Shown in pieces: positions 35,560 through 49,840 of a stretch of 60,676 nucleotides of DNA; position 1 is the first letter of the stretch; each line of letters opens with the position of its first letter. The stretch covers positions 1-60,676 of the forward strand of contig DASULA010000093.1 of the NCBI GenBank assembly GCA_036278435.1. Reading direction: 5' to 3'. The stretch comes from Mycobacteriales bacterium (GTDB lineage Bacteria; Actinomycetota; Actinomycetes; Mycobacteriales; DASULA01). The translations under genes and the position numbers were made by a program. The notes under the pieces were generated by a model. That model had not been told where the DNA came from and did not search any database. It worked only from the letters and a program-made list of their open reading frames with translations.

Positions 35560-35633
35560 GGGGCTGTAGCGCAGTCCGGTAGCGCACCTCGTTCGCATCG
35601 AGGGGGTCAGGGGTTCGAATCCCCTCAGCTCCA
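35560..35633 (+). tRNA. tRNA-Ala (anticodon CGC)
   Basis: Hand-folded: acceptor GGGGCTG/CAGCTCC with the G3:U70 Ala identity pair, anticodon stem CCTCG/CGAGG, loop TTCGCAT, T-arm AGGGG-TTCGAAT-CCCCT. No encoded CCA. Confidence 0.9.
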
Positions 35634-36121
35634 CGAAGTCAATGGGCGGCGTGTGCCCGCGGAGTAGGCGGGCCATGGTCGCCTTCGTTATTTGTGCTCG
35701 GCTTCGCCTCGCCGGGCGGGGGCTTTGCGACCCGCACCCCCATAGTGTCCGCGGTGGGTTGCCGGTCGGGGTTCGAGTTAGGTGTGGTCAGGGTCCACAA
35801 TCAGAGCCATGCCGGGCACCAGCCGCACCATCCTCGTCCAACTCATCAGCGAACTGGACACGCGCAGGCTGTCCTTCTACGGGATGCCAGCCCCGCTGCG
35901 TGTTCCCAACGACGCGCTGGGAGCATCCGGCGAACCCGTGCGTGTCCCGGTACCCAGCGGCACCATCACTCTCGATCCGAACGTCGAAGTCGTGCCGCTG
36001 CTCGTTGTCGCCAGCGCTAAGCACATCGCCGCCGTACCGCAGCGTCCAGGCCCGCGTGCGACGTCGCCGCGCCGAGAGCGACCGCATCGTGCCCTCACCT
36101 CGGCGGCTGACCTCCTGGATT

Positions 36122-36481
36122 ATGAGCAGACCCCAGGACCTGTCCGACAAACATCGTGCTCACCTCGGTGACCTCCTGGCTGCCTGCCCGGAGATGACTG
36201 CCCTGGTGGGCTTCGTCGGTGAGTTCGCCCAACTCATGGCCGAGCGGCGCGGCAGCGACCTCGACTCCTGGGCCGCACACGTCCGAGCAGCCGGACTGTC
36301 CGAGATGGCGCCCTTCCTCAACGGTCCCGAGGCAGACCACGACGCCGCCGTGGCCGGCCTGAGCGTGCCTCACAGCAACGGCCCGACCGAGGGCATCAAC
36401 ACCAAAACCAAGCTCATCAAACGACAGATGTATCGCCGCGCAGGCTTCCACCTCCTCCGCCACCGCATCCTGCTCCCATAA
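36122..36481 (+). mobile_element. ISL3-family transposase, C-terminal remnant only
   Basis: ...HSNGPTEGINTKTKLIKRQMYRRAGFHLLRHRILL is the conserved ISL3 C-terminus. The N-terminal two-thirds of a normal ISL3 transposase are absent, and the upstream part of tracked ORF 35642.. shows no transposase motifs. Confidence 0.7.
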
Positions 36482-36671
36482 CTCCCCGACCAGACGACCG
36501 GAAGCGAGCCAGAGCCAAACGTTTGACAGACCCCCGTCCCTCGCGATGCCATACACGCGCCCAGACTCGGCGTCACGACCGAGCCAGGCCGCCGGCACGC
36601 ACGGGCCCCGGGCCGAACGTTTGAGCCCAGTCAGTGTTGCGACTACCCTTCGGACCCGTGCAGTGCTCCAC

Positions 36672-37448
36672 ATGCGTATTGTCAGCGCCATGCATAAGGT
36701 GCCGAAGATCTCGGTTCAGATCCAGCCGCAGCACGTTCGTCTAGAGGCGCTTGTCGATGCCCTCGACGAGCTCGACGCGCTGCGGGTCGACACCATCTAC
36801 TGCTGGGACCATATTGGTCAGTTGTCGGGGAGCAGCAGTCTGCCGAGCCTGGAATGTTGGGCCTTGCTCGCGTCGTTGTCGCGCGTAACGTCGCACGTCA
36901 AGTTAGGTTCCCTGGTGAGCCCATACGGCTGGCGCAATCCTGAACTAATGGCGTACACGGCTGATACAGTCGATCGAATGTCGGGCGGCCGCGTTGTCCT
37001 AGGGATGGGTGCCGGCTGGCATGCGTCGGACTTTGAGCGGCTCGGCTTAGTCATGCCGGCCGGTGCCGCCCGCATCCGGGGCTTGCAATCAGCGCTGGAT
37101 CGCATCAGGGCTAGCCTCGACGCGTTGAAGTCCAGGGTGCCGGTGTTGATCGGTGGCTCAGGGCCCAAGTTGCTCGACGTTGTCGCGCAGCACGCCGACA
37201 TCTGGCATAGCAATCAGCAAGGTCCGGCCTGGGCCCGCGCCGCCGCAACGCTCGAACAAGCGTGTCACCGGCGCGGTCGCGACCCAAGAACCATTGTTGT
37301 GTCGGTGTCGCTTGGCGATAGCGATATCGACGCACTCGCGAAGGAGCACGAGATCGACTCGGTAACCGTCAACGTGGCCGGCCCCAGGTTCGATCTGCGC
37401 CGTGTCAGGGAGCTCGTGAGCTGGCGTGCGGGCGTGTTGAGTGGCTGA
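36672..37448 (+). CDS. LLM-class (luciferase-like) F420/flavin-dependent oxidoreductase
   Basis: KISVQIQPQH...VDTIYCWDH...GGRVVLGMGAGWH pattern. Start at ATG 36672 or 36690. Confidence 0.75.
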   Translation: MRIVSAMHKVPKISVQIQPQHVRLEALVDALDELDALRVDTIYCWDHIGQLSGSSSLPSLECWALLASLSRVTSHVKLGSLVSPYGWRNPELMAYTADTVDRMSGGRVVLGMGAGWHASDFERLGLVMPAGAARIRGLQSALDRIRASLDALKSRVPVLIGGSGPKLLDVVAQHADIWHSNQQGPAWARAAATLEQACHRRGRDPRTIVVSVSLGDSDIDALAKEHEIDSVTVNVAGPRFDLRRVRELVSWRAGVLSG

Positions 37449-37463
37449 GTGGCGCCCGATCCC

Positions 37464-38585
37464 TCATGCCAGCAGACCTCGCCACGCGTCTACCTGGTCA
37501 AGTATGGCGCAGTCGGGCACGGACGCAAAGTCGGCAGCTCTTCGCTGGACGGATCGTGAGTCAATGTCACCGTTCGACTCGATCGCGACCAATGCTGCCG
37601 ACAACACTAAGTAGGGGTCAGTCTGCTGCGCGGCTGAGGAGGTCACCCTGTAGGCGCGTAGGTCGGCAACGCTAACTTCGCCGTGAAGCACTGCATCTAG
37701 CACAGCGCGGATCTCCCTGGCGAGCGGGTAGCGGTCGCCGACCGACCCGGCCGTCTCGAAGCAAACGAACACGTCACCGTTGGTCGGCTCGAAGCGGACG
37801 GAGAGTCCATACCCGCCGGCACCGTAGCGAAAGCTCTCGTACAACCTTGGGACCGGGCCATAGACGAAAGCTCCGCACGCGATGGCAACGGCGCGCGCGC
37901 CCTCGTCCGTATCCACAGGCAATGAGAAGGCAACGCTGTTCCACACGCCCTTTCGGGCAAGTCGCTGCGCCGACCATCCCCCATCGAGCCTGTACCTGCG
38001 ACGGCAAGCACTCAGCGCACTGGTTCGATCAGCCTGTCCGTCGAGCCACCCATTGAATCGGCCGCCGAGACCAACCGGGGCTGGCCCGGCCACTCCGATC
38101 GCCCTCAGTACGGGCGCTAGGTCGGCGCATGCCCCCTCCGCTGCAATCGGCATCACCGTCAGACTCAGGCTGCGCCGGTCCTCGGGGTGGTAGAGCTTCC
38201 TTCTGGCCAACTGCTCTGTTCGGATCGGCGGCTGATGATCCGAACGTACCGCCGTCCCCAACTCGCCGTCGACAGATTCCCGGTAACCCTCGACGACCGA
38301 GGCCACCGTATCAACGATTCTCGGTGCATCACGGGGCAGACACTCAACGACCAGGTCAGCGTGGGCCCAGGCGATACTCCCTCTCACCGTCGCAGCTTCG
38401 GTGCAGAGAGCTCTGAGCAATCTTCCGCAGATGCGCCGCAGGAGCATCAGGCTGGCGCCGCGCTCACCGGCCTGCTCACCGAGGATCGAGAGTCCCAGCC
38501 TCAGGACGATGGTCGTCACGTGACAATGCGGAGTGACGAGACTTATCACTGGTATAGGCTGCTCCCGGTCTATTACCAGTCTCAC
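37464..38585 (-). CDS. M16-peptidase-like protein lacking the HxxEH zinc motif (probable non-catalytic partner subunit)
   Basis: Size and position suggest pairing with the M16 gene at 41925..43145. The place of HxxEH reads GASLMLLRRI. GTG at 38585 overlaps the MFS stop as GTGA. Contains an in-frame TTA codon at 37608-37610. Confidence 0.5.
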   Translation of the reverse strand: MRLVIDREQPIPVISLVTPHCHVTTIVLRLGLSILGEQAGERGASLMLLRRICGRLLRALCTEAATVRGSIAWAHADLVVECLPRDAPRIVDTVASVVEGYRESVDGELGTAVRSDHQPPIRTEQLARRKLYHPEDRRSLSLTVMPIAAEGACADLAPVLRAIGVAGPAPVGLGGRFNGWLDGQADRTSALSACRRRYRLDGGWSAQRLARKGVWNSVAFSLPVDTDEGARAVAIACGAFVYGPVPRLYESFRYGAGGYGLSVRFEPTNGDVFVCFETAGSVGDRYPLAREIRAVLDAVLHGEVSVADLRAYRVTSSAAQQTDPYLVLSAALVAIESNGDIDSRSVQRRAADFASVPDCAILDQVDAWRGLLA

Positions 38586-39868
38586 CGGGCGGTCACTTCG
38601 GTCCGCGACACCGAGTTGTCGAGCGTCCAAATGCTGCTCAGTGCTAACGGTAGGAAGCCGGCGACGAGCAGCGCTAGCCCGGCACCGACGAACAGCGGCC
38701 GCAGGCCGATGTGGCTGGCGAGGGAACCCGCGCCGACATAAGCGAGCGGTACGACGGCGAGCTGCCCGGAGTTCGATAGGCCGAAGATTCGACCCTGGAT
38801 TTCGCCGGAGAAGCTTGTCTGAAGGAGAACGGTGAACGACACGATACTTACGTCAAGCGCGACGCCAGTCATTGCTGTGGCGACGCAGATCAACCAGATC
38901 CCGTCCCAGTTCAATGCTAACGCGAACATTGGAAACGCCATCACACCTGTGGCGACGCACATTGCGACACCGGTCCGACTGGGCTGCCAGCGAACAAGCA
39001 AGAATGATCCCGTGATCATGCCTCCAGCGAAGCTGCTGGAAATCAAGCCCCAAGAGCTCGCGCCGCCCAAGCTTTCGTAGGCCTCAGTGGGACCGAGCAG
39101 CTGGAACCCGATGAGCCATACGAGCGTGCCGACAGCTCCCTGAAGCACCAACACTATGAGCCAGCCGTGCGACCGGAACTCCGACCAACCCTGCAGGAAG
39201 TCAGCGGTCGCTCGCACCCGATTGGTCTGCCTGCCCTGCTGCCTGTTCCCAGTCATCGCCAGCACTCGCAGTAGCAAAGCCGCGAGCAGGAAGGAAGCAC
39301 CATCCAAAGTAATGACCGAGGCGGGGCCCACCATACCGACGAGCCACCCGCCTAGCGCGGGGGCAACAAACTTGGTGACGCTGAAGCTCATCCGCAGCGC
39401 TGCTGTCGCCGTGACCAGGTCCTGCCGGGGGACCAGATCGCGCAGCACTCTTTGATATGCGGGAGCGAAGATCGCCGATCCGGAGCCGGTGATCGCCGCG
39501 CCGACCAGCAGGTACACGAGGGACTGGTACCAAAGCAGGCTAGCCGCGACGCCGAATTGGGACACGGCGACAACGACGTCGACAAGAACGATGAGCCGAA
39601 AACGCGGCAGGCGGTCGCACAAGACGCCTGCCGCAGGCATGAGCAGCGCCTGCGGTATCGCACTACACATTAGGACTAGACCCAGCGCTGTAGGTGATCC
39701 GCTTATGCGCAGAGCGCCGAAGGCAAGCGCGATAGTCGCCATTCCTGAACCGAACAGCGACACGGTTCGTGCTAGCGCGTAGCGGCGGTATGTGCCGTTA
39801 TTGCTCAGCAGCAGAAAGCGCCCGCGCATGCTTGGGAGTGCTTCCTTGGAGCCTGCGTAGTCAGCCAT
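38582..39868 (-). CDS. MFS transporter
   Basis: About 12 hydrophobic spans; 428 aa. Confidence 0.85.
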   Translation of the reverse strand: MADYAGSKEALPSMRGRFLLLSNNGTYRRYALARTVSLFGSGMATIALAFGALRISGSPTALGLVLMCSAIPQALLMPAAGVLCDRLPRFRLIVLVDVVVAVSQFGVAASLLWYQSLVYLLVGAAITGSGSAIFAPAYQRVLRDLVPRQDLVTATAALRMSFSVTKFVAPALGGWLVGMVGPASVITLDGASFLLAALLLRVLAMTGNRQQGRQTNRVRATADFLQGWSEFRSHGWLIVLVLQGAVGTLVWLIGFQLLGPTEAYESLGGASSWGLISSSFAGGMITGSFLLVRWQPSRTGVAMCVATGVMAFPMFALALNWDGIWLICVATAMTGVALDVSIVSFTVLLQTSFSGEIQGRIFGLSNSGQLAVVPLAYVGAGSLASHIGLRPLFVGAGLALLVAGFLPLALSSIWTLDNSVSRTEVTAR

Positions 39869-39877
39869 CGCCAGCCC

Positions 39878-41161
39878 TCACGCGGGGCGGCGCAACACGC
39901 CTAGACTGCACAAGACCCGTGCGACGCGGGCGGCCGCTTCGAATCCGATGCCCGGAAGCTCGGTCAGCGTGAAAGGTTCAACTTGCGTGCACAACTCCCG
40001 GCACGCCGCGACAGCAGGACGGCTCTGCAGTACCAAGCCACCCATGTCGGAAATTAGCAAAGCGGCCGTGGAATCGAATTCGAACAGTGGAAGAGGTACC
40101 GGGAGCGCGCGCGTCAGCACGGATTGCTGCGAGAGTTCTTGGCCTGGCTCCCGGTCGGTTAAACTGGTTTCCAGATAGGGCCGAGCGCTCATGAACATGC
40201 CTGCCGTCGTCAGGGCCGATAGGGTCGGCGCGTCTAGTGACACAACGAGCGCTGCGGTCTCGCCGAGGTAGCGTTCAAAACTCGCATCGCTTGTCGCCGC
40301 GTTCGTACGCTGCAGTACACCGCGCAAATTCTTGATGGTGTCGACGACAGCATTCCTCAGTAAATCCTCCTCTTGTTCGACTCGGACGCCGACAGTCAGA
40401 TGCAGCGAGTCGTTCGTGGTCGTCCGTGCCGCATGCTCCGTATTCCGTGGAAGGAACAGAACGTCACCTTCAGCCAGATCAATCACGGACGAGCCCATAC
40501 TTGGTACACTCCATTGCTTCGAGCCGCGCAACTGAACGACGACGACATCGTGCGGGTCCCGGTGCAAGTCAAATCCCTGATGCCCGCCGGCACGAGTGGC
40601 GTAGACGTTTGCGTGACAAGACCCTCGCATCACCCATGCCAACTGGCGGCACAAGAGCCCTACCGCCCGGCGGTAACGCTGGACCCCTTGCAAGATGATT
40701 GTCGCCCCAGCGAAATATAGGTCGCGGACCGCCCTTGGATCTGGCGCTCCGTCGACCAGCAGGTGTACTTGGTGGTCGATACCGGCCGAGTTTGCAGCTG
40801 ATCGGGCCAGGGGCCGCAGATACCTTGTCGGCTCCACAGTTTCGCCGTCCTTGGCGAGTCGGAAGTGCGCGGGCCGCAGCAGCTGCCCGAAGATGAGGGC
40901 GTCCACGTCCGGCCAGTCGAGCAGGTCGAAAAATGAGCCACGTTCTCGATGCACAACCGGCCCGTTGCTGGCCATCACGTTCTGCTCGAGATCGAGTCCA
41001 AGCCGGCGGGGCTGCCAGTCTTCACAGCGGTGGAACGGTCCCAACCACTCGAGCCGCGGGCGTTCCTCGCTGGCGACCGCGAGCTGCTTCAGCGTCGTGT
41101 GCACTGATTCAGTGACGGAAAGGTCGTCAGTGACGCGCGCGAGCCCAGCCGGCTTCATCAC
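39878..41161 (-). CDS. JmjC/cupin-4 family Fe(II)/2-oxoglutarate-type oxygenase
   Basis: GFDLHRDPHDVVVVQLRGSKQW...GDVLFLPRNTEHAART gives an HxD...H facial triad in the cupin-4 (ribosomal-oxygenase-like) arrangement. Confidence 0.7.
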   Translation of the reverse strand: MMKPAGLARVTDDLSVTESVHTTLKQLAVASEERPRLEWLGPFHRCEDWQPRRLGLDLEQNVMASNGPVVHRERGSFFDLLDWPDVDALIFGQLLRPAHFRLAKDGETVEPTRYLRPLARSAANSAGIDHQVHLLVDGAPDPRAVRDLYFAGATIILQGVQRYRRAVGLLCRQLAWVMRGSCHANVYATRAGGHQGFDLHRDPHDVVVVQLRGSKQWSVPSMGSSVIDLAEGDVLFLPRNTEHAARTTTNDSLHLTVGVRVEQEEDLLRNAVVDTIKNLRGVLQRTNAATSDASFERYLGETAALVVSLDAPTLSALTTAGMFMSARPYLETSLTDREPGQELSQQSVLTRALPVPLPLFEFDSTAALLISDMGGLVLQSRPAVAACRELCTQVEPFTLTELPGIGFEAAARVARVLCSLGVLRRPA

Positions 41162-41928
41162 CGCAGCCTCGCAGACATGAAGCGCGCTCCGCGATGGATG
41201 GTCAGTTGATCTTGATGTTCGGCATCGCGCGCAAGTTCAATAGTCGTCGCTCTGAACTCGTCGGCCGCGTGATCTGGCAGGCTCTCAACAAACCCACGTA
41301 GGCCATGGCTCATCTCTGACTCCCAGAAGTCAATCGGACTCGCGTACGTTACCGGGACCGAGACCGCCGTGACACGTACACTGTCGAAGCCTGCGTCGGT
41401 CAACTGCGGCACGAGGGTTTTGACGTTATGGGTCTCCCACACGCCCGGCAGTCGAAAGTCCGCGAAGCGTGCGATTAGGTCGCCGTATCCCGGTAGCTCG
41501 CCTTTTGGTGCAGTAGCGGGAGTCGATACGCCCACGATGCCTCCGGGTTTGAGAATGCGAGCAACTTCGAGAATGCATGCGTCGACATCCGTCGCGAAGT
41601 TGACCGCGAAGCCGAGGAATGCATAATCGAAGCTGGAGTTTCGCAACGGCAAGTGGGTCAAGTCGCCACGCACAACGCGACGCAGCCCGGCGGCTCTGGA
41701 TTTCGTTGTCATGCCGGAAGATAGGTCGCAACCAACGACTCGCGCTCGCCGGCGCCGGAGCGCGCCGCTGAGACCGATTGCACCGCGTCCACAGGCGAGA
41801 TCCGCGATCCATGCGTCGTCGCGCGGATCGACCCACTCAACAAGTGCCTCTCCGAGCGGCGGAAAAAACGGGACCTCCCCGTACCGATCCGACACCTTAT
41901 CGAATAGCGCCAGTACCTGAGAGTTCAC
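41158..41928 (-). CDS. Class I SAM-dependent methyltransferase
   Basis: IADLACGRGAIG motif I, VVGCDLS motif II. GTG at 41928 follows GGGAGG and overlaps the M16 stop as GTGA. Confidence 0.8.
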   Translation of the reverse strand: MNSQVLALFDKVSDRYGEVPFFPPLGEALVEWVDPRDDAWIADLACGRGAIGLSGALRRRRARVVGCDLSSGMTTKSRAAGLRRVVRGDLTHLPLRNSSFDYAFLGFAVNFATDVDACILEVARILKPGGIVGVSTPATAPKGELPGYGDLIARFADFRLPGVWETHNVKTLVPQLTDAGFDSVRVTAVSVPVTYASPIDFWESEMSHGLRGFVESLPDHAADEFRATTIELARDAEHQDQLTIHRGARFMSARLR

Positions 41929-43145
41929 GGTCGCCTCCCGCTGTGGTGGAAGATACCGACCGCTCCGCCACAGGTGAGAGCGACGGCAGCACATGTCAAA
42001 TTCCCGAGCTGGTTCCGGATGTCTGCTGCCGTCGTCCGGCGCAACTGGTGGACGTCACTGATCGGGTGCTGGGCTGCGCAGCCGCGAGCCGCGCGACCGG
42101 CCAGTTCGTCAGCCAGCGCCCCTGGACGCGATGCCTTCGACAAGATCTCAAGGGTCAGACCCCGCACCGCCGCAAGGTGAAGGGCTGCGAATTGACGATC
42201 GTCTTCGAGCAACTCGACCCATCTCCGTTGGACGTTCGCGGTGAAGCTTACACGGTGCTCATTGGGAAGCTGTCGAAGATCGAGTGCAATCAAGCTACCG
42301 TACCGGTCGGCCGGATAGTGCACGATTCGGCACGGGGCTATGTCCCGTTCCTGTGCCGCGTAGTCGCGAAGCATCCGAACTAGCACAGCGCTGGCGAGGA
42401 ACTGGGTCGAATCGCGCGCCGGGAAAGTCAACGCTGAGCATCGGTCATGGGTCCGCTGTGTATCGGTAACGCGGTCGTTCGAACCGCCGTTTACATCAGT
42501 GTTCAGCGCCGCACTGATGCGGTCGACCACACTTGAGAAGGATTCAGCGGTTACTATCGCGATCGTCAGCCGCTGCGCCCTGCAGCACCTTCGGACGAAG
42601 GCGCCGAGCTGGGCCGGCGTGGGTGCGGCATCGGCGTACGCCGGTCGCAGCGGAGCGCTATGGTAAGGATGAGTGGCTGGCCACGTCGCCCTCAGCAACC
42701 GGGGGTACAGGTCGCCGTCAGGACCTAGAGTTTGCATAAACCATTCGTCGTCGATGACTGCGCGCTCGCGTTCCAAGGATAGCGCGTTGACGCGCAGGCA
42801 ACCGCTCAGCCACCCAGTTGTGCGCTGTAGGCGCAGAAGCCGTCCCAGCATCTGGGCTGACACGTAACCGGAAAAGCGCATGCGGTCCACGGAGGTAGAT
42901 GCCCCCCAGCCGGGACACTCGGCGGCGACGGACGAGGGCAGGGCAGCCGTGCCTGCAGCGAACAGCAGGTGCTCGCTCAAGTGAGCAGCTCCCGCCTCCG
43001 ACGGTCTGTCCTCCTCTCGGGACCCAGCTTCGAAGTGCATTGCCACAGCCATCGGGTTCGCGTCGGGGCGATGCGCCCACACCACCCTCGTGCCCGTATC
43101 AAGACTCACCGCGCGACATCTCGGAGCGACGTCGGCGCTAGCCAT
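41925..43145 (-). CDS. M16-family (insulinase-like) zinc peptidase with an intact HxxEH motif
   Basis: FEAGSREED.PSEAGAAHLSEHLLF contains HLSEH. Start taken at MASADV (ATG 43145), overlapping the TfuA stop by 8 nt. Confidence 0.75.
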   Translation of the reverse strand: MASADVAPRCRAVSLDTGTRVVWAHRPDANPMAVAMHFEAGSREEDRPSEAGAAHLSEHLLFAAGTAALPSSVAAECPGWGASTSVDRMRFSGYVSAQMLGRLLRLQRTTGWLSGCLRVNALSLERERAVIDDEWFMQTLGPDGDLYPRLLRATWPATHPYHSAPLRPAYADAAPTPAQLGAFVRRCCRAQRLTIAIVTAESFSSVVDRISAALNTDVNGGSNDRVTDTQRTHDRCSALTFPARDSTQFLASAVLVRMLRDYAAQERDIAPCRIVHYPADRYGSLIALDLRQLPNEHRVSFTANVQRRWVELLEDDRQFAALHLAAVRGLTLEILSKASRPGALADELAGRAARGCAAQHPISDVHQLRRTTAADIRNQLGNLTCAAVALTCGGAVGIFHHSGRRP

Positions 43146-44481
43146 CGGCGGGCTCGTCGCGACGAAGCGACCAGAGGTAGAAGTAGCGTAACACCTCCGC
43201 CGCACCATCCGCGCTGTCGAAGCCTCGATCGCGCGCGGCCGCGTCGAGTTCGTCCGGACGGTCGATTATGTCCCAGAGTCCGACCAGCCGAGCTCGCAGC
43301 CGATCGGCCCGCAGATGGTGCACGCTACGACCAGGGTCGCTGGCGCTCGCTGCTCGACTGATCTCTAGCGCGTCGGCGACCCTAAGTGCTAGATCATCGT
43401 CGATCGCCTCATTCCACAGGATCTTGGAAAGGGGCCAGTCAGGCGCTGCCGGCGAGCTTCGGCACGAACGAACCAACAGTCGGGTCATGCACTCGTGTGA
43501 AGGCAGGTTCGTTAACTCCATCTCGGTTAACCAGAATCTCTTCTGTTCTGCGTCGAGCGACTCCCACGCGAGTCCGCGCTCGTTCGCTCGATGCACTGCC
43601 GCGAGCTCCACGTCCATGTCGATGAACCCGCGCGAGTCGCCGATGTCGGCGATCCAGCGCAGCACGAACCGGCGCCAGGCCGCGGCGAACGACGCGTCGA
43701 ATAGTTGCCGAAACTGCATGGCAGCCAGCCGCGGCACCCTGCGTCCATCGGACGTAGTCAGTGCCTGATAGCGCCGCAGCCAGTGCTGCAGGTACGTAGT
43801 GCGCCATGACCCCCAGTCGGCACTGCGCCCATCCGACTGTAGCTCGCCACGCCGGACGGCGCGAAGACATGCCAACGCATCCGCCCGTTTGCCGAGTTGC
43901 TGGTTCGACGGCTGCGCTACCCAGGCCCAAAAGTTCTCGAAGCGGGGACCGGACAACATTGACCGAAGTCGATGGGGCGTTCGATCGAGGTAATGGAGCG
44001 AACGGGCTGCCTCGACGACGTCGATCGCCTGTCTCTGGGTCAACACACCTGCACCGAGTGCAGCCTGCGTGCTGATCCGGACGTCGACAAGGGGCGTCGT
44101 CGTCTGCCGGAACCCGTGGTCAGCATCTGCGTGCGCTACCGCCACCTCGTCGTCACCATCGATCTCTTGAGTGGCATACATTTCGTATACCGATCCGAAA
44201 CCGATCATCCCGAATGCTGACAGCTCGGCGGCTCTAAGCGCACCCATGCTGCTACAGCCAATCACCGTGGTACCCGCGTCAAGACAGTGCAGGATCTCCT
44301 TGTGACGCACGGGTGCTGTCTGGTGAAACAGGCCGTCGATGATGACGATTATATCAGTCGCCTTGGGCTCGAGAGCGAGCAGGTCTCCATGCTGGATTGG
44401 CGGCAGCAGGGTGGCTCGGGGCAGATGGGATGCGACCTCGTCGCTTGCGAGGGTCGGGCCTGCAAACACGAAGGTGCTCAT
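43138..44481 (-). CDS. TfuA-like protein (long actinobacterial form)
   Basis: MSTFVFAGPTL.........LLPPIQHGDLL......IIVIIDGLFHQTAPVRHKEIL..LDAGTTVIGCSSMGALRAAEL..FGM.G.G.VY is the TfuA domain. ATGA overlap with the YcaO stop. Confidence 0.85.
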   Translation of the reverse strand: MSTFVFAGPTLASDEVASHLPRATLLPPIQHGDLLALEPKATDIIVIIDGLFHQTAPVRHKEILHCLDAGTTVIGCSSMGALRAAELSAFGMIGFGSVYEMYATQEIDGDDEVAVAHADADHGFRQTTTPLVDVRISTQAALGAGVLTQRQAIDVVEAARSLHYLDRTPHRLRSMLSGPRFENFWAWVAQPSNQQLGKRADALACLRAVRRGELQSDGRSADWGSWRTTYLQHWLRRYQALTTSDGRRVPRLAAMQFRQLFDASFAAAWRRFVLRWIADIGDSRGFIDMDVELAAVHRANERGLAWESLDAEQKRFWLTEMELTNLPSHECMTRLLVRSCRSSPAAPDWPLSKILWNEAIDDDLALRVADALEISRAASASDPGRSVHHLRADRLRARLVGLWDIIDRPDELDAAARDRGFDSADGAAEVLRYFYLWSLRRDEPADG

Positions 44482-45752
44482 GCCTCAGTTCCACATTCGG
44501 GGCGCGGGATCTCGTGCCGAGCCGTATACTCCGTTTTGGGCGCGATGACCCGGACCACCGCAAACTCCGGTTCGGTGCTGAGATCTACGACAATCGGCGA
44601 CACACGTGACCCACATTCGAGTCGAGCTGTCGCCCATTGCAGTTCGGCTTCATCCGTTTCAAGGCCATCCTGACACCTTGCAACATCCGGCCACGATATC
44701 AGTGAGGCGCGCAAACTTGGTGCCCGATAGCGGCCATTCGGCATTCGGTAGACCAGTGGACTGATGTCGTCGCGGGTACCCACAATGAAAGTGACTCTGC
44801 TTTGCGCTGCCTCGGTTATGGCCCGGGAGAGCGCGACCGCGGATGAAGAGTGTGCGCCCGAGCCGACTACCATCGCGCCGCCAAAGAAGGGACACCATAG
44901 GTAGCAAACATAGCAAGGTACACCAAATGGGTTCGGGGCACTCACGATCTCTACCCATGCATCCGCGGCGTGAAGGCGCCTGAGGAGTTCCCGGCAATGC
45001 GGATCATCTACCGTCTCAGGATCAATGTAAGTGCGCTCGTGTACACCGACGCGGCCAAGTCGGCTGGTGGCATCACGTTCGATGATCTCGTAGATCGCGT
45101 GGGTGGTGGCCTCAGCGAGCGTATTGCCCGACGCCAAGCCATTGCTTGACGCAGTAAGCATCCATACCCGCCAGTCACGGGAGATGTCGCGGCCCATCTG
45201 TACGGCTTCGCGCGGAACTAGGACGGTCCGGCCTGTAGCAAATTCGACGCCTTCGATCCAATCGAGCAATGCCTCGTCGGTTAGCAAGCTCCCAGCGTGC
45301 TGCTGCAGATCGCGCACCGCGTACGGCAAATCAAGCTCTCCGGCCGGCGTGTCGGTGAGGACTGCTTGCGGGACGGCGCGTTCCGCATGCCAGAGTTCGA
45401 TGGACTCCATCGCAGCGGAAACCCTGGCGGACGCCTTGTCGATTCCCTTGCCCTGCGACACTGTCAGGGTCGTCGCCAGCGGTCGGACAGCCATTACTAC
45501 CGGTATGTCGAGAATGTCGAGGCCCGTTACATCAGCCAGTCGGGTTAGTCGGTACTTCTGAAACTTCGGGGCGACGATATCGAATGTCTCGGCAGGGGAG
45601 CGCACCCGGTGTGTGCCATCGAAATATGTCTTCTTCACGATTCCGTCGCAGTCGTTGTGATGACCCATGACGCCCGGGAGGGCGGCACTGGATACCGCCA
45701 CTCCCGGGCAGATTTCACACGTCGTATACCGCGACGTCGAAGAATGCGACAT
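44478..45752 (-). CDS. YcaO-family ATP-dependent amide-activating enzyme (TfuA-associated type)
   Basis: KKTYFDGTHR, SQGKG, ESIELWHAE, SSNGLASGN, EAxxHAIYEIIERD, EAAQSR and GTRDD motifs. The start is ambiguous: 45752 overlaps the precursor ORF by 38 nt, while the ATG at 45668 leaves a 46-nt gap. Confidence 0.9.
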   Translation of the reverse strand: MSHSSTSRYTTCEICPGVAVSSAALPGVMGHHNDCDGIVKKTYFDGTHRVRSPAETFDIVAPKFQKYRLTRLADVTGLDILDIPVVMAVRPLATTLTVSQGKGIDKASARVSAAMESIELWHAERAVPQAVLTDTPAGELDLPYAVRDLQQHAGSLLTDEALLDWIEGVEFATGRTVLVPREAVQMGRDISRDWRVWMLTASSNGLASGNTLAEATTHAIYEIIERDATSRLGRVGVHERTYIDPETVDDPHCRELLRRLHAADAWVEIVSAPNPFGVPCYVCYLWCPFFGGAMVVGSGAHSSSAVALSRAITEAAQSRVTFIVGTRDDISPLVYRMPNGRYRAPSLRASLISWPDVARCQDGLETDEAELQWATARLECGSRVSPIVVDLSTEPEFAVVRVIAPKTEYTARHEIPRPECGTEA

Positions 45753-45876
45753 CGGGCACAGTGGCGTCGCCGCCTTGGTTCTGCGGCATCACTCCGTCGT
45801 CGAAGAGCTTCATGACGAAGTCTTGATCACTTAGCTCGACCGGGTCCGCCGTAGCCTCGGGGTCAACACTGCTCAT
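45715..45876 (-). CDS. Candidate RiPP precursor peptide (53 aa, or 55 aa from the ATG at 45882)
   Basis: Below the track length cutoff, so hand-translated: (MT)MSSVDPEATADPVELSDQDFVMKLFDDGVMPQNQGGDATVPDVAFFDVAVYDV. GGGAGG (45885-45890) lies 8 nt upstream of ATG 45876. Sits between the oxygenase pair and YcaO on the same strand. Confidence 0.6.
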   Translation of the reverse strand: MSSVDPEATADPVELSDQDFVMKLFDDGVMPQNQGGDATVPDVAFFDVAVYDV

Positions 45877-45911
45877 GGTCATCACCTCCCCTCAGTGGAA
45901 TCGTCGCCGCT

Positions 45912-46541
45912 CTAGTCGAGGGCGAAGTAACAGATGGTCGCGAGAATGCCCAGGTCTTCTGTCTCGAAAGGTGAACGCCAGTGCGGAATGTTGAACCCAT
46001 CGAAAGCCATGACGGTGCCTTGAGTAAGCGGCATCGTCGACGATGTCTGCGGAAAATCACCACGCTGGCTAAGCTCCTCTATGAGCGCGGAATTGGACAA
46101 CCCACGTAGTTCCGGAAGCCAGCCCATGATCCCAAGGTTGTCGGTAACCGCGATTGACAGGGTGACGGTGCATTTGAAGTCGTCGCGGTGGGCGGCCATG
46201 AAGTCGCCAGCCCGATAATATTTGTATCCCATTCGAGTTGGCACGATGATGTCGGATCGAAGGGCAGTACGGACAATGTCGATCAACGAGCGATCGTGTG
46301 CCATAGCCTTGAGCGCCGGACCGGCCCGATGTGCTCGACACCTTTGCGCGGAGGACAGCCCGCCCTCGCGGTGGGCCTTCCACCCGACCGCCGTGTTGAT
46401 TCGGTCGAAGGCCTCCGTCTCGAAGGATCTCGCTTCGTCCAACAGCGCCCGAGACCGCGACATGTCGAGCACACCTTGCACCTGAAAATGGCCATCACGC
46501 TGCCATGCCGCCGCAACGTCGGCGAGCGCCATGCTGGTCAT
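45912..46541 (-). CDS. Small HxD...H oxygenase-like protein (putative Fe(II)/2OG-dependent), paralog B
   Basis: GYKYYRAGDFMAAHRDDFKCTVTLSIAV ... FDGFNIPHWRSPF. Collinear with the upstream paralog. The start overlaps the upstream stop as ATGA. Confidence 0.55.
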   Translation of the reverse strand: MTSMALADVAAAWQRDGHFQVQGVLDMSRSRALLDEARSFETEAFDRINTAVGWKAHREGGLSSAQRCRAHRAGPALKAMAHDRSLIDIVRTALRSDIIVPTRMGYKYYRAGDFMAAHRDDFKCTVTLSIAVTDNLGIMGWLPELRGLSNSALIEELSQRGDFPQTSSTMPLTQGTVMAFDGFNIPHWRSPFETEDLGILATICYFALD

Positions 46542-47176
46542 AGGTCGAAGTAGCAGCAGTTGGCGAGCAGGCCAAGGTCCGACTCGAACGGCTTGCGCCA
46601 GTGCGGTACGTTATATCCGTCGAAAGCGACGATCGTCCGATGGGGCATGGAGATTGACGTCCCGACTTTTGCGGGAAAGATGCCATCTTCGGCGACCGTA
46701 GCAGCCAGTTTGTCGTTAGATGCGAGACGCAATTCGGGTGCCCAGTGCAGGCCGTCGAGATTCGGTGTCACGGCAAAGTTGAGAGTGACTGTGGCCTTTA
46801 CCGAATCGCGGTGCAGGCCGAGATAGTCGCCCGGACCATAGTAGTTGTATCCGCACCGAACGGGAATTAGCCGTGGCATGCCGACTGCTCGCCGGACGGC
46901 TTCGAGGAACTCAATCGACCGATGCAAGCGGCGAAACACTGTCCCACCCTGAACGCTGTGAAAGCGGGCAGGTGTAGCAAAGCTGCCGTCTCGATGCGCT
47001 GCGACCTGCTCGAAGCCGTTGCTGTTAGCCTCCTCGCGCAGCGCGAGGGCTTCCTTGAGCAGCGCCTCCCATGTCTCGTCTGAGAGTTCGATCTTGAGGT
47101 CGGCGGTAGCCGTCTCGTCCCACTGTTGCTTGGTCATGCCGCTCCACAACGCCGCCAACGTAACCAATTCGGACAT
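46538..47176 (-). CDS. Small HxD...H oxygenase-like protein (putative Fe(II)/2OG-dependent), paralog A
   Basis: GYNYYGPGDYLGLHRDSVKATVTLNFAV ... FDGYNVPHWRKPF. Start at ATG 47176 (or 47137, after GGAG). The 5' 119 codons of tracked ORF 46538..47533 look non-coding. Confidence 0.55.
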   Translation of the reverse strand: MSELVTLAALWSGMTKQQWDETATADLKIELSDETWEALLKEALALREEANSNGFEQVAAHRDGSFATPARFHSVQGGTVFRRLHRSIEFLEAVRRAVGMPRLIPVRCGYNYYGPGDYLGLHRDSVKATVTLNFAVTPNLDGLHWAPELRLASNDKLAATVAEDGIFPAKVGTSISMPHRTIVAFDGYNVPHWRKPFESDLGLLANCCYFDL

Positions 47177-47957
47177 CCGGATGATAGCCAAATATAGAAC
47201 GAGTTGGAAGCCCCGGGTCCTACTGGATATTGCGTCCCATCTGCCTTGGGTGTCGAAGTATCTGACCGGCCAGCTTGAGCCGCTGACCGCAGTACAGGGG
47301 CCTGCCAGGGCGATGCAGGGCCCCGGCGTGAGGTCTACATGAATGAGGTGTGGCGTGCCCGCTGTTGCATTGTCCCGCGTGGGTGCGCAGGTGGTCGCAT
47401 CCGGTCCCGAAGGCGAGAACCTGGCCGCCGGCGCGTGGCGGCGGCTGGAGTCGCTGCCCGATCCGCGTTCAGCGTCATGCCGACCCCACCGATCCAGACC
47501 GCCTGGCTTAGGGGCAACGGATCCAGGGCACATCTTCCTTCACCGGTCACTTCCTCGCCCACGGCGACAACATCGCCTGCTCATAGCAACGTCAGACCAG
47601 ACCGCCGGCGCACGGTCGTCGGTGGTCTGGGGCGGGCCGCCACGCACCACGGCGCACTCTCACAGCGATCGTGAGGTGCCTGCGTATCGCCTCCTGGCCC
47701 CCGCGGTGACCGGAGGAGGACTCCTGGAACCACGATCGACCGCCGTCCCGTGGCCGGATGCTGGAACGGGCGGCCCACCACCCGCGTAGGGTTCGCCACG
47801 GTCGCCGGGCTGTTGGCGTTCGCGCACCGGCACCGCCGGAGCCCGGACGGGTGAGAGCGGATGGCTCAGGGCAACCACATCGAACGTGGTGGTCGGTACG
47901 GTGCGGTGAGGCGGGCAGTCATGTGATCTACAAGTTCGAAGAGGGCGAGGGGATCAG

Positions 47958-48584
47958 ATGGACCATGAGGCAGCGGCCCACCTGTCGCGGCTGAAGGCGC
48001 TGGACGCGGCCACCGTGCACGAGGCCGCCGGGCGGGTCGGGCACGTGGCTCCCACGGTGCGCCCGATCCAGCGGGGCGTCACCCTGGCCGGCCGGGCCGT
48101 TACCGCCGAGGTCCACCCCGGCGACAACCTGGCGCTGCACCGGGCCGTGCTGGCCGGGTCCACCGGCGACGTGCTGGTGGCCGCCGCTCGCGGTCACCTG
48201 GCCGGGTACTGGGGCGAGATCCTGGCCGTGGCCGCGCAGGTCAGGGGTATCGCCGGGTTGGTGCTGGACGGCGGCTGCCGGGACACCGCCGCGTTGCGGG
48301 CCCGCGGCTTCCCGGTCTGGTCAACCGGGGCCAGTGTGCACGGCACGGTCAAGCGCACCCCCGGCACGGTCAACCAGAACGTCGTGGTCGGCGGCGTACC
48401 AGTGTCGCCCGGGGACTACGTCATCGCCGACGACGACGGCGTGGTGGTCGTGCCGGCCGGCCGGATCGCCGAGGTGCTCGACGCGGCCGAGGCGCGAGTG
48501 GCCAGGGAGGCCGAGATCATGCGGCAACTCCGCGACGGCGGCACCACCATCGACCTGATGGGCCTGGCCGGAGCCCTGCTGTGA
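47958..48584 (+). CDS. RraA-family protein (4-hydroxy-4-methyl-2-oxoglutarate aldolase / oxaloacetate decarboxylase-like)
   Basis: ATVHEAAGR.G......RPI......AG.AVT......DNLALH.A......GDVLV......GYWGEILA..A...GIAGLV.DG.CRD pattern. Confidence 0.8.
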   Translation: MDHEAAAHLSRLKALDAATVHEAAGRVGHVAPTVRPIQRGVTLAGRAVTAEVHPGDNLALHRAVLAGSTGDVLVAAARGHLAGYWGEILAVAAQVRGIAGLVLDGGCRDTAALRARGFPVWSTGASVHGTVKRTPGTVNQNVVVGGVPVSPGDYVIADDDGVVVVPAGRIAEVLDAAEARVAREAEIMRQLRDGGTTIDLMGLAGALL

Positions 48585-49171
48585 CCGGCCCGGCCGACCC
48601 GCCGAAAGCGGTCGACCCGCCGACAGTGTCGGACCCGCCAGATCTGGCCGACGTGCTGGCCGAGCGCAGCGCGGCCGTGGTGGCCGGCGTCGAACGGATC
48701 GACCCCGACGCCGTGCTGCACCTGGCCAGCAGCACGCTCCGGCTCGTGCTGGACCACTTCATCGGCGGGCCGGGCGCCCGTGCCGGCCGCCTCGTCTTCG
48801 CCATGCCCCGCGAGGAGGAGGGGGTCGCGGTGGCCGCCGGCCTGGAACTGGCCGGACGCCGGCCGGTCCTGATCTTCCAGGACAACGGGATCGGCAACCT
48901 GCTCACCTCGCTGCTGACGTTCCCGCAGGCCTACCACCTGCCGCTGTTCGGCGTGGTGACCCGGCGTGGTGGCCTGGGCGAGTACAACTCGATGATCCAC
49001 ACCATCAGCGAGCGCAGCGAGGCGCTGCTCGACGCCGCCGGAGTCCGCTGGTTCGGCCTGGACTCGCGGACCCCGGTCGAGCTGTGGCCGCGGGAGATCC
49101 ACCGGGCCTGGACGTTCAGCCGCACCACCCACCGGCCGGTGTTCACCTTCGTCAATCTCATGGGGGGCTGA
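48581..49171 (+). CDS. ThDP-dependent decarboxylase, alpha (N-terminal PYR-domain) subunit; sulfopyruvate/phosphonopyruvate decarboxylase-like
   Basis: EEGVAVAAGLELAGRRPVLIFQDNGIGN...PLFGVVTRRG pattern. GTGA overlap with the RraA-like stop. Confidence 0.75.
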   Translation: MTGPADPPKAVDPPTVSDPPDLADVLAERSAAVVAGVERIDPDAVLHLASSTLRLVLDHFIGGPGARAGRLVFAMPREEEGVAVAAGLELAGRRPVLIFQDNGIGNLLTSLLTFPQAYHLPLFGVVTRRGGLGEYNSMIHTISERSEALLDAAGVRWFGLDSRTPVELWPREIHRAWTFSRTTHRPVFTFVNLMGG

Positions 49172-49174
49172 GGA

Positions 49175-49840
49175 GTGGCCGAACTCCGCCAAGAACGCCG
49201 CCACGAACTCCGCCGCGCCGACGTGCTACGCGACATCGACCGGGCCTTCGCGGACTCCCCGATCGTGCTCACCCTGGGCGGCACCGCCCGGGAGATGCTG
49301 GCCGTGGCCGGGCGCCGGCCGAACCATTTGGTCAACCTCGACGCGATGGGCCAGACGGTGCCGGTCGCGCTCGGGCTGGCCCTCGGGCTGGGGCGCGACG
49401 GCGACGGCGGACGCCGGACCGTGGCGGTCGAGGGCGACGGCTCGTTGCTGATGGGGTTCAGCGTGCTGACCACAGTCGGCCACCTGCGGCCGGCCAACCT
49501 GGTGGTGATCGTGCTGGACAACGGGGTCTACCTGGCCACCGGCGGGCAGCCCACAGCCGCCGCCGGAGTGGACCTGTGCGCGGTGGCCGACGCCTGCGGG
49601 TGGGCGGGCAGCCGCGACGTGGACGGCGCCGGCCCACTCGCCGACGCGCTGGCCTGGGCCGCGCGGGAACCCGGGCCGCTGCTGTTGCGGGTCCGGGTCG
49701 GCACCGGGCAGGTGCCGACCGACTTCTTCCTGGCCGACCCGGTGGTGCTCGCCTCGGACTTCCGCCGCTGGCTCGCCCGAGCTGAACCCACGCCGGGCCA
49801 GGGGAGTCCGCACGCCCCGGGGAGTCCGGTCGGGTCCTGA
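49175..49840 (+). CDS. ThDP-dependent decarboxylase, beta (PP-domain) subunit
   Basis: MGQTVPVALGLAL...AVEGDGSLLMG...VVIVLDNGVY (GDGS...N ThDP-Mg motif). Begins 3 nt after the alpha subunit stop. Confidence 0.75.
   Translation: MAELRQERRHELRRADVLRDIDRAFADSPIVLTLGGTAREMLAVAGRRPNHLVNLDAMGQTVPVALGLALGLGRDGDGGRRTVAVEGDGSLLMGFSVLTTVGHLRPANLVVIVLDNGVYLATGGQPTAAAGVDLCAVADACGWAGSRDVDGAGPLADALAWAAREPGPLLLRVRVGTGQVPTDFFLADPVVLASDFRRWLARAEPTPGQGSPHAPGSPVGS

Follow-up and report, generated by a model that had tools for sequence, protein, structure and literature searches.

A short open reading frame (ORF) of 53 codons lies directly upstream of a YcaO–TfuA gene pair on contig DASULA010000093.1 (assembly GCA_036278435.1), a 60,676-nt stretch of a Mycobacteriales bacterium metagenome-assembled genome (MAG) that we analysed as a whole and refer to as the window. 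We found this ORF to be a genuine conserved gene and not a chance frame. We consider it likely (a probability of roughly 0.8) that it is the structural gene for the precursor of a RiPP (a peptide made by the ribosome and then modified post-translationally), acted on by the YcaO–TfuA pair and by two oxygenase-like paralogues encoded just upstream, which we denote oxA and oxB. In 32 related loci, which span several genera of actinobacteria, the amino-acid sequence of the frame is conserved and the frame always lies directly upstream of YcaO–TfuA. This conservation supports an earlier reading of the same DNA made from its letters alone (the sequence-only reading), which had proposed the ORF as the precursor for the adjoining pair.

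Translation of the minus strand across positions 45715-45885 gives VMTMSSVDPEATADPVELSDQDFVMKLFDDGVMPQNQGGDATVPDVAFFDVAVYDV, followed by the stop. The TGA, the spacing of a GGGAGG Shine-Dalgarno box and the GG immediately N-terminal to the final 17 residues were all reproduced as first described. ATG 45876 is the likely start, giving a peptide of 53 aa, because the box lies 8 nt before it, versus 2 nt before ATG 45882. The same choice had been made from the sequence, and it is borne out by the relatives, whose ORFs nearly always have a strong Shine-Dalgarno box ahead of them (an AGGAGG-type box 5-9 nt before the start in 29/32 related loci; in the remaining loci another possible start has one). 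The ORF had also been called untracked; it is indeed missing from the ORF track, but GenBank already holds the same 53-aa product, annotated by NCBI as hypothetical protein VFX70_04430 of the Mycobacteriales bacterium MAG. The whole peptide has neither Cys nor His, and its last 13 residues (PDVAFFDVAVYDV) have no Cys, Ser or Thr. The window holds one copy, and a family-consensus query typed from the alignment finds it by tblastn with an E-value of 1.3e-9.

Relatives of so short a peptide were recovered to very different extents by different searches. With the peptide as query, a word-indexed search through 5.8 billion proteins matched nothing but the peptide itself. An exhaustive phmmer (HMMER) search of 1.84 billion representative proteins returned five relatives (47-72 aa; E 6.6e-8 to 1.1e-4; 49-60% identity), and a scan for the pattern NxGGD[AP]AVPD, in which each GTDB species was represented by one genome, detected 27 loci, mainly in Streptomyces and Kitasatospora, two of which are contigs of one Sporichthyaceae MAG. 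The family is larger than this count because the pattern misses the window's own variant, NQGGDATVPD. In the genomes with the nearest YcaO (Sporichthyaceae MAGs and S. ossamyceticus), a gene of 51-53 aa that can be aligned with the window peptide is called directly upstream of YcaO. A metagenome scan with the alignment of the window's subgroup produced 231 pattern matches, none of which was confirmed as a relative.

Members of the family share the motif D-x-x-F-[IVL]-x-x-L-x-x-x-G-x-x-P-Q-N-x-G-G-D-x-A-V-P-D-x-x-F-x-D-x-x-x-Y. The alignment is composed of a variable N-terminus of ~16 residues, a single conserved block of ~35 aa (D17-Y51 in window numbering) and a tail of 1-10 residues after the Tyr whose sequence is variable. 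Seven positions are invariant (L24, G28, P31, N33, P41, F45 and D47), and another seven are conserved at 90% or above (G35, G36, D37, A39, V40, D42 and Y51). Two subgroups can be told apart, a Streptomyces type (DPADF[IV]xELHxEGxxPQNxGGDPAVPDSAFPDTHTY) and a window type (DQ[DE]F[ILV]xxLFDxGVxPQNxGGDAxVPDxxFFD[EV]xVY).

Substitution patterns suggest that the conserved block is under selection as protein. Nonsynonymous and synonymous differences (pN/pS) in the block were 0.091/0.209 for the Streptomyces group (24 distinct genes) and 0.188/0.604 for the window's subgroup; constraint is far weaker in the variable N-terminus (0.369/0.47) and the tail (0.365/0.254). By segment, pN was 0.066 in the core and 0.109 in the leader, and in the core block the pN/pS of the annotated frame (0.57) was the lowest of the six frames (0.85-1.58 in the others). 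The GC content at third codon positions of the relatives' peptide genes was 0.96-1.0. The annotated frame alone was open in 31/31 loci, with an antisense frame open in 27/31; counts of open frames are uninformative in DNA this GC-rich.

The conservation is not that of a 5' extension of the overlapping YcaO frame, a possibility that had been raised when the ORF was first described. Three YcaO starts are available: ATG 45752, which opens the longest ORF and overlaps the last 12 peptide codons; GTG 45701, called by NCBI; and ATG 45668, directly after a hairpin. The last is the more likely because homologues are 385-395 aa long and GTG 45701 falls inside the hairpin. These homologues align from about ATG 45668 and the hairpin occupies the gap, which rules the extension out.

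This hairpin is itself a conserved feature. The peptide stop codon lies 14-47 nt upstream of YcaO on the same strand, and the 66-nt stretch 45660-45725 that holds the stem-loop folds with -44.3 kcal/mol (z = -6.8 versus dinucleotide shuffles). An equivalent hairpin of different sequence (-34 to -50 kcal/mol) is found 3' of the peptide gene in 29/30 related loci. Among 50-nt windows it ranked 1-9 of ~4000 for stability in 13/14 tested loci, and 10 of 6126 in the window. The stem-loop has no U-tract, and the region had no Rfam match. RiPP operons commonly raise the ratio of precursor to enzyme transcript with a stem-loop after the precursor gene, and we infer a similar role in expression here: the hairpin would act as a partial terminator or mRNA stabiliser, leaving more transcript of the precursor than of the enzymes.

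We mapped the window's ten operon proteins onto all related loci by tblastn. Every locus with enough flanking sequence has the same gene order, oxA-oxB-peptide-YcaO-TfuA-MFS, and the same cassette is present in a Dactylosporangium locus and in one metagenome contig. Wherever the flank of a related locus reaches far enough, an MFS_3 gene adjoins TfuA, mostly in convergent orientation; it is co-directional in one locus (L033) and in the window, where all ten genes are tightly packed on the minus strand (Table 1). Pfam and NCBIfam scans of the ten genes recognised only YcaO, TfuA, M16, methyltransferase, JmjC and MFS proteins, and four genes were matchless.

Table 1. Features of the operon, in window coordinates
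Feature	Position	Strand	Remarks
oxA, oxB paralogue, ~212 aa	46538..47176	minus	alignment with 205-215 aa homologues
oxB, putative Fe(II)/2-oxoglutarate oxygenase-like, 209 aa	45912..46541	minus	invariant H118-x-D120...H187
Shine-Dalgarno box	45885..45890	minus	GGGAGG
Precursor peptide gene (candidate)	45715..45876	minus	53 codons (45876-45718) + TGA 45717-45715; MSSVDPEATADPVELSDQDFVMKLFDDGVMPQNQGGDATVPDVAFFDVAVYDV
GC-rich stem-loop between peptide stop and YcaO	45671..45710	minus	fold of 45660-45725
YcaO, ~396 aa from ATG 45668	44478..45668	minus	PF02624 E 1e-60
TfuA, 447 aa	43138..44481	minus	PF07812 E 8e-42; NF033432 170.2 bits (cut-off 235.2)
M16 (insulinase-type) metallopeptidase	41925..43208	minus	zinc motif HLSEH (HxxEH); PF00675 E 2e-5
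SAM-dependent methyltransferase	41158..41994	minus	Methyltransf_11 E 1e-16
JmjC/cupin oxygenase, NO66/MINA53-like	39878..41161	minus	PF08007 E 2e-16; PDB NO66/MINA E 4e-4
MFS exporter, conserved cassette member	38582..39868	minus	MFS_1 E 2e-29; MFS_3 E 1e-20
388-aa protein, last operon gene	37464..38630	minus	faint Peptidase_M16_C match, E 0.28

The YcaO scores 169.6 bits with the McrA-thioamidation model (equivalog cut-off 365) and 82.5 bits with the SagD azoline model (cut-off 219.25). Its closest homologues, at 56% identity, are those of the Sporichthyaceae MAGs and S. ossamyceticus, and YcaOs of the family span 44-57% identity to it. The YcaO and TfuA genes share 4 nt (YcaO stop, TfuA start) and are translationally coupled. 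Residues 5-168 of TfuA match the solved TfuA structure (PDB 6xp8; E 1e-28), and the protein is long throughout the family (~445-475 aa, where 200-270 aa is usual). Its additional C-terminal part (~240 aa; 237 aa in the window, encoded at 43138-43851) is conserved across the family, with relatives aligning over their full length, and matched no Pfam family and no PDB chain. Because the cluster has no PqqD-like element, this region may be a candidate substrate-recognition domain, possibly replacing the missing recognition element.

The two oxygenase-like proteins belong to a family of ~205-aa proteins whose members always come as an adjacent pair of paralogues on the upstream side of the peptide gene, and an oxB orthologue is found in every related locus with upstream sequence. 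In tblastn comparisons across the loci, oxA and oxB fall into two distinct lineages of orthologues, and their duplication is therefore older than the family. Neither protein matched a Pfam or NCBIfam model at threshold. An HxD...H triad is invariant in 23 oxA/oxB homologues, in which a PHWR motif is also kept. A profile of the family aligned with E. coli AlkB structures through the iron-binding HxD motif of AlkB (E 0.056), and single members matched PhyH (E 0.007) and 2OG-FeII_Oxy_2 (E 0.07). We suggest that the two are probably a divergent, undescribed branch of Fe(II)/2-oxoglutarate oxygenases. A 331-aa ORF at 46538-47533 is an over-extended version of oxA; homologues align from ATG 47176, probably the true start. 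This ATG is preceded by an AT-rich stretch, TTCTATATTTGGCTATCAT, which could be the promoter region of the operon.

The sequence-only reading had favoured a thioamide over an azoline, a preference supported by the TfuA partner and by a YcaO that scores best with the McrA-thioamidation model. Its exclusion of azolines by way of the Ser/Thr-free tail does not extend to the family: relatives carry Ser and Thr in the core, and the thioamide assignment therefore rests on the TfuA partner and not on missing nucleophiles. The D-V-A-aromatic quasi-repeat that it had noted is likewise particular to the window (two and a half copies, too few to test significance). At the same site relatives read DRSFFDETVY, DKAFADVTVY or DSAFPDTHTY, with Ser/Thr frequent, and share D-x-x-F-x-D-x-x-x-Y instead. 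Nor is the GG a clean boundary between leader and core, as conservation crosses it and the equivalent position in one relative (P0125) is occupied by SH.

We infer a mechanism in which the substrate role, the thioamide, the hydroxylation and the cleavage site are all predicted. The segment D17-Q-D-F-V-x-x-L-F-D-x-G-x-x-P-Q-N would most likely dock the peptide on the modifying enzymes, perhaps through the conserved C-terminal region of TfuA, and the block G-G-D-x-x-V-P-D-x-x-F-x-D-x-x-x-Y would receive the modifications. YcaO–TfuA would activate at least one backbone amide with ATP and exchange its oxygen for sulfur, forming a thioamide. OxA and oxB would oxidise side chains, probably by hydroxylation, with the invariant Asp, Pro, Phe and Tyr as candidate sites, and the MFS protein would export the product. 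For the window cluster, the M16 peptidase would in addition remove the leader, possibly together with the 388-aa protein, and the methyltransferase and JmjC oxygenase would tailor the product further.

Several observations weigh against the precursor assignment or parts of it. Conservation is unbroken across the GG, so that the family has no defined leader/core boundary, and in the leader block pN/pS fails to separate the annotated frame from the other frames. The related six-gene cassette encodes no protease, and domain scans of the operon proteins detected no PqqD-like RiPP recognition element in the cluster. The oxygenase assignment is based on the HxD...H motif and sub-threshold matches; a word-indexed search with oxB returned itself and one homologue, and the AlphaFold model built from the resulting three-sequence alignment (pLDDT 49.7) was unusable. 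Finally, literature searches found no characterised product, translation or modification reported for any family member, and a search with the family motif strings found nothing.

We weighed the precursor assignment against four other explanations. The first takes the peptide as a scaffold from which a small molecule is excised: a few invariant residues would be modified or cross-linked and then cut out, as in the biosynthesis of pyrroloquinoline quinone (PQQ) from PqqA or in that of the tripeptide-derived thiovarsolins, and the remainder would be lost. The ORF would then still encode a precursor, although of a very different product. The invariant residues toward the C-terminus are indeed few and spaced (P41, F45 and D47, with D42 and Y51 near-invariant), their neighbours are variable, and in the post-Tyr tail pN exceeds pS. 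The thiovarsolin cluster, which has the same gene order, is described as yielding a small thioamidated fragment (PMC6511847), and the window's M16 peptidase is weakly similar to PqqF (TIGR02110, E 7e-5). That similarity, however, is a generic N-terminal M16 motif far under the model cut-off. Moreover, the relatives' cassette lacks any peptidase, the cluster has no radical-SAM or other cross-linking enzyme, and the peptide family bears no similarity to the thiovarsolin precursor VarA. We consider this explanation unlikely.

A second possibility is that the ORF is a regulatory upstream frame which, together with the hairpin, forms a translation-coupled attenuator of YcaO–TfuA, the peptide itself being functionless. 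It would account for a very strong, conserved hairpin between the ORF stop and YcaO and for a short ORF directly ahead of the enzyme genes. Regulatory leader peptides usually conserve only a few key codons; here amino-acid identity is kept across genera, with invariant residues and pN below pS. Furthermore, the ORF terminates ahead of the hairpin and does not overlap alternative pairings, and the fold showed no alternative anti-terminator structure. There must also be a substrate for the YcaO–TfuA pair with its dedicated oxygenases and exporter, and no second small ORF is conserved there. An attenuator is thus very improbable.

The nearly invariant internal GG could also point to a mini sulfur carrier or accessory protein, cleaved at G-G and thiocarboxylated like ThiS or MoaD, that feeds TfuA while the substrate is encoded elsewhere. 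TfuA has been reported to hydrolyse the ThiS thiocarboxylate, delivering sulfide (PMC13185837), and a Pfam scan found no ThiS or ThiF gene in the cluster. Yet the ~35 residues that precede the GG, variable at their N-terminal end, are too few for a beta-grasp fold of the ThiS type, conservation after the GG is at least as strong as before it, P0125 does without the GG, and the same scan found no adenylating E1-like enzyme in the cluster, making a carrier a very remote prospect. The last explanation, a chance open frame in GC-rich DNA whose relatives reflect conserved noncoding or antisense sequence, has in its favour the often open antisense frame and the leader block whose pN/pS is not frame-specific, but appears effectively refuted by protein E-values down to 6.6e-8 against 1.8 billion sequences, GC3 near 1.0, the frame that alone is open in all loci, the Shine-Dalgarno boxes before its ATG, the lowest core-block pN/pS and a fixed, co-directional position in the operon.

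Compared with its relatives, the window cluster is elaborated. Its M16, methyltransferase and JmjC genes are inserted between TfuA and MFS, and tblastn found no counterpart of these three or of the 388-aa protein in the 32 related loci. The 388-aa protein matched nothing in Pfam or the PDB at normal thresholds and had no significant similarity to the window's M16 peptidase; it may be an inactive M16 partner. The whole RiPP operon lies in an island of ~12 kb (35,640-47,950) with 58-68% GC, versus 72-78% in the flanks, that begins right after a tRNA-Ala(cgc) (35560-35634) and a fragment of an ISL3 transposase (35642-36481). A search for an att-like repeat of the 3' end of the tRNA-Ala at the far island edge gave only a 10-nt chance match. 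Best identities to relatives were 56% for YcaO, 60% for the peptide and 46% for oxB. The absence of close relatives fits horizontal acquisition, and these data suggest that the operon was acquired horizontally. The low-GC island also holds a gene for a luciferase-like monooxygenase on the plus strand (36546-37448). Just outside it, at 47958-49840 on the plus strand, are an RraA-like/aldolase gene and a split thiamine-pyrophosphate (TPP) enzyme, apparently unrelated to the cluster; the C-terminal TPP-binding domain of the latter occupies 49175-49840, and the 196-aa ORF ahead of it is matchless.

The family and its fixed cassette could represent a chemically new RiPP class, defined by thioamidation together with paired side-chain oxidation on D-x-x-F-x-D-x-x-x-Y, of which the window would be a horizontally acquired, elaborated version. 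We put this forward tentatively, at slightly under even odds; if true, the window product would be unlike any known thioamidated peptide. Ribosomal peptides with thioamides are rare; several of them act as potent cytotoxins or antibiotics, and to our knowledge only a handful of YcaO–TfuA families have a known product. A precise motif, a minimal cassette of six genes and Streptomyces hosts that grow in culture make the family directly testable by heterologous expression, and both its unclassified oxygenase-like pair and its TfuA with a conserved extra domain are worth characterising. Tying the short ORF to an actinobacterial family of ~30 loci is useful for natural-product discovery and genome annotation alike, as the key gene of such clusters is smaller than the usual ORF-length cut-offs.

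We compared the cluster with characterised YcaO systems. [quoted passage not shown] The McrA thioglycine system of methanogens shares YcaO and TfuA, and its NCBIfam models are those with which the window's two proteins score best, in both cases below the equivalog cut-offs; however, its substrate is a large enzyme subunit and not a dedicated small peptide, and it has neither oxygenases nor an exporter.

The thioamitides (thioviridamide, thioholgamide and thiostreptamide S4) resemble the proposed pathway in that YcaO–TfuA thioamidates the backbone of an actinomycete ribosomal peptide. Thioamitide clusters carry a JmjC-type hydroxylase and a methyltransferase that act on His; the window cluster has the same enzyme types, yet its peptide contains no His. 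Thioviridamide-like peptides are described as ending in an HC motif (PMC6511847), and membership in this class was rejected for the window peptide, which has no Cys, no His and no terminal HC. Scanned with Pfam and NCBIfam, the ten genes of the operon also included no homologues of the enzymes (dehydration, decarboxylation) that build the AviMeCys macrocycle. For oxA and oxB, a parallel is offered by CinX and DurX, the Asp beta-hydroxylases of lanthipeptide clusters, and by other Fe(II)/2-oxoglutarate RiPP hydroxylases, which are dedicated non-haem iron oxygenases that hydroxylate a specific conserved residue of a RiPP core; the likeness lies in the invariant HxD...H triad, similarity to AlkB and PhyH being only marginal.

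Judging by enzyme similarity, the closest experimentally characterised system is the thiovarsolin cluster. A YcaO-like protein of S. varsoviensis, presumably VarY, is 51% identical to the window YcaO, inside the 44-57% range of the family itself. The cluster (varA-varY-varT-varP, with the oxidase gene varO) shares the order precursor-YcaO-TfuA-MFS with an oxidase gene upstream (PMC6511847, Table S2), and its product is reported there to contain a proven thioamide. The two systems differ in several respects. VarA has 113 aa with repeated APR units, and the window peptide has no APR/GPR unit; homology between them was rejected, with hhalign assigning a probability of 0.2% to the alignment of the family profile with VarA residues 1-66. 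VarT has ~270 aa (816 bp), compared with ~447 aa and an extra conserved C-terminal region for the TfuA found here, and VarO is haem-oxygenase-like, whereas oxA and oxB are AlkB/PhyH-like.

Finally, genome mining had already brought this family to light in 2019. The RiPPER survey lists candidate peptides adjoining actinobacterial tfuA genes (Santos-Aberturas et al. 2019; PMC6511847, Supplementary Dataset 4), and at least three entries of that list are family members: S. davawensis WP_015663090_1, S. purpureus WP_019885859_2 and S. iakyrus WP_033309247_1, the last of which was recovered again by our genome scan with its full cassette (L018). As listed, these peptides follow DPADF[IV]xELHxxGxxPQNxGGDPAVPDSAFPDTxTY, sharing the invariant L, G, P, N, P, F and D, and they were previously unannotated, lie on the tfuA strand and are 1267-1297 nt from tfuA, that is, directly upstream of YcaO. 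The window peptide belongs to a divergent subgroup (38-45% identity to the three), and its cluster has four extra genes. The window cluster thus adds a new member, divergent and with more elaborate tailoring, to a bioinformatically predicted precursor family, and is not surprising in kind.

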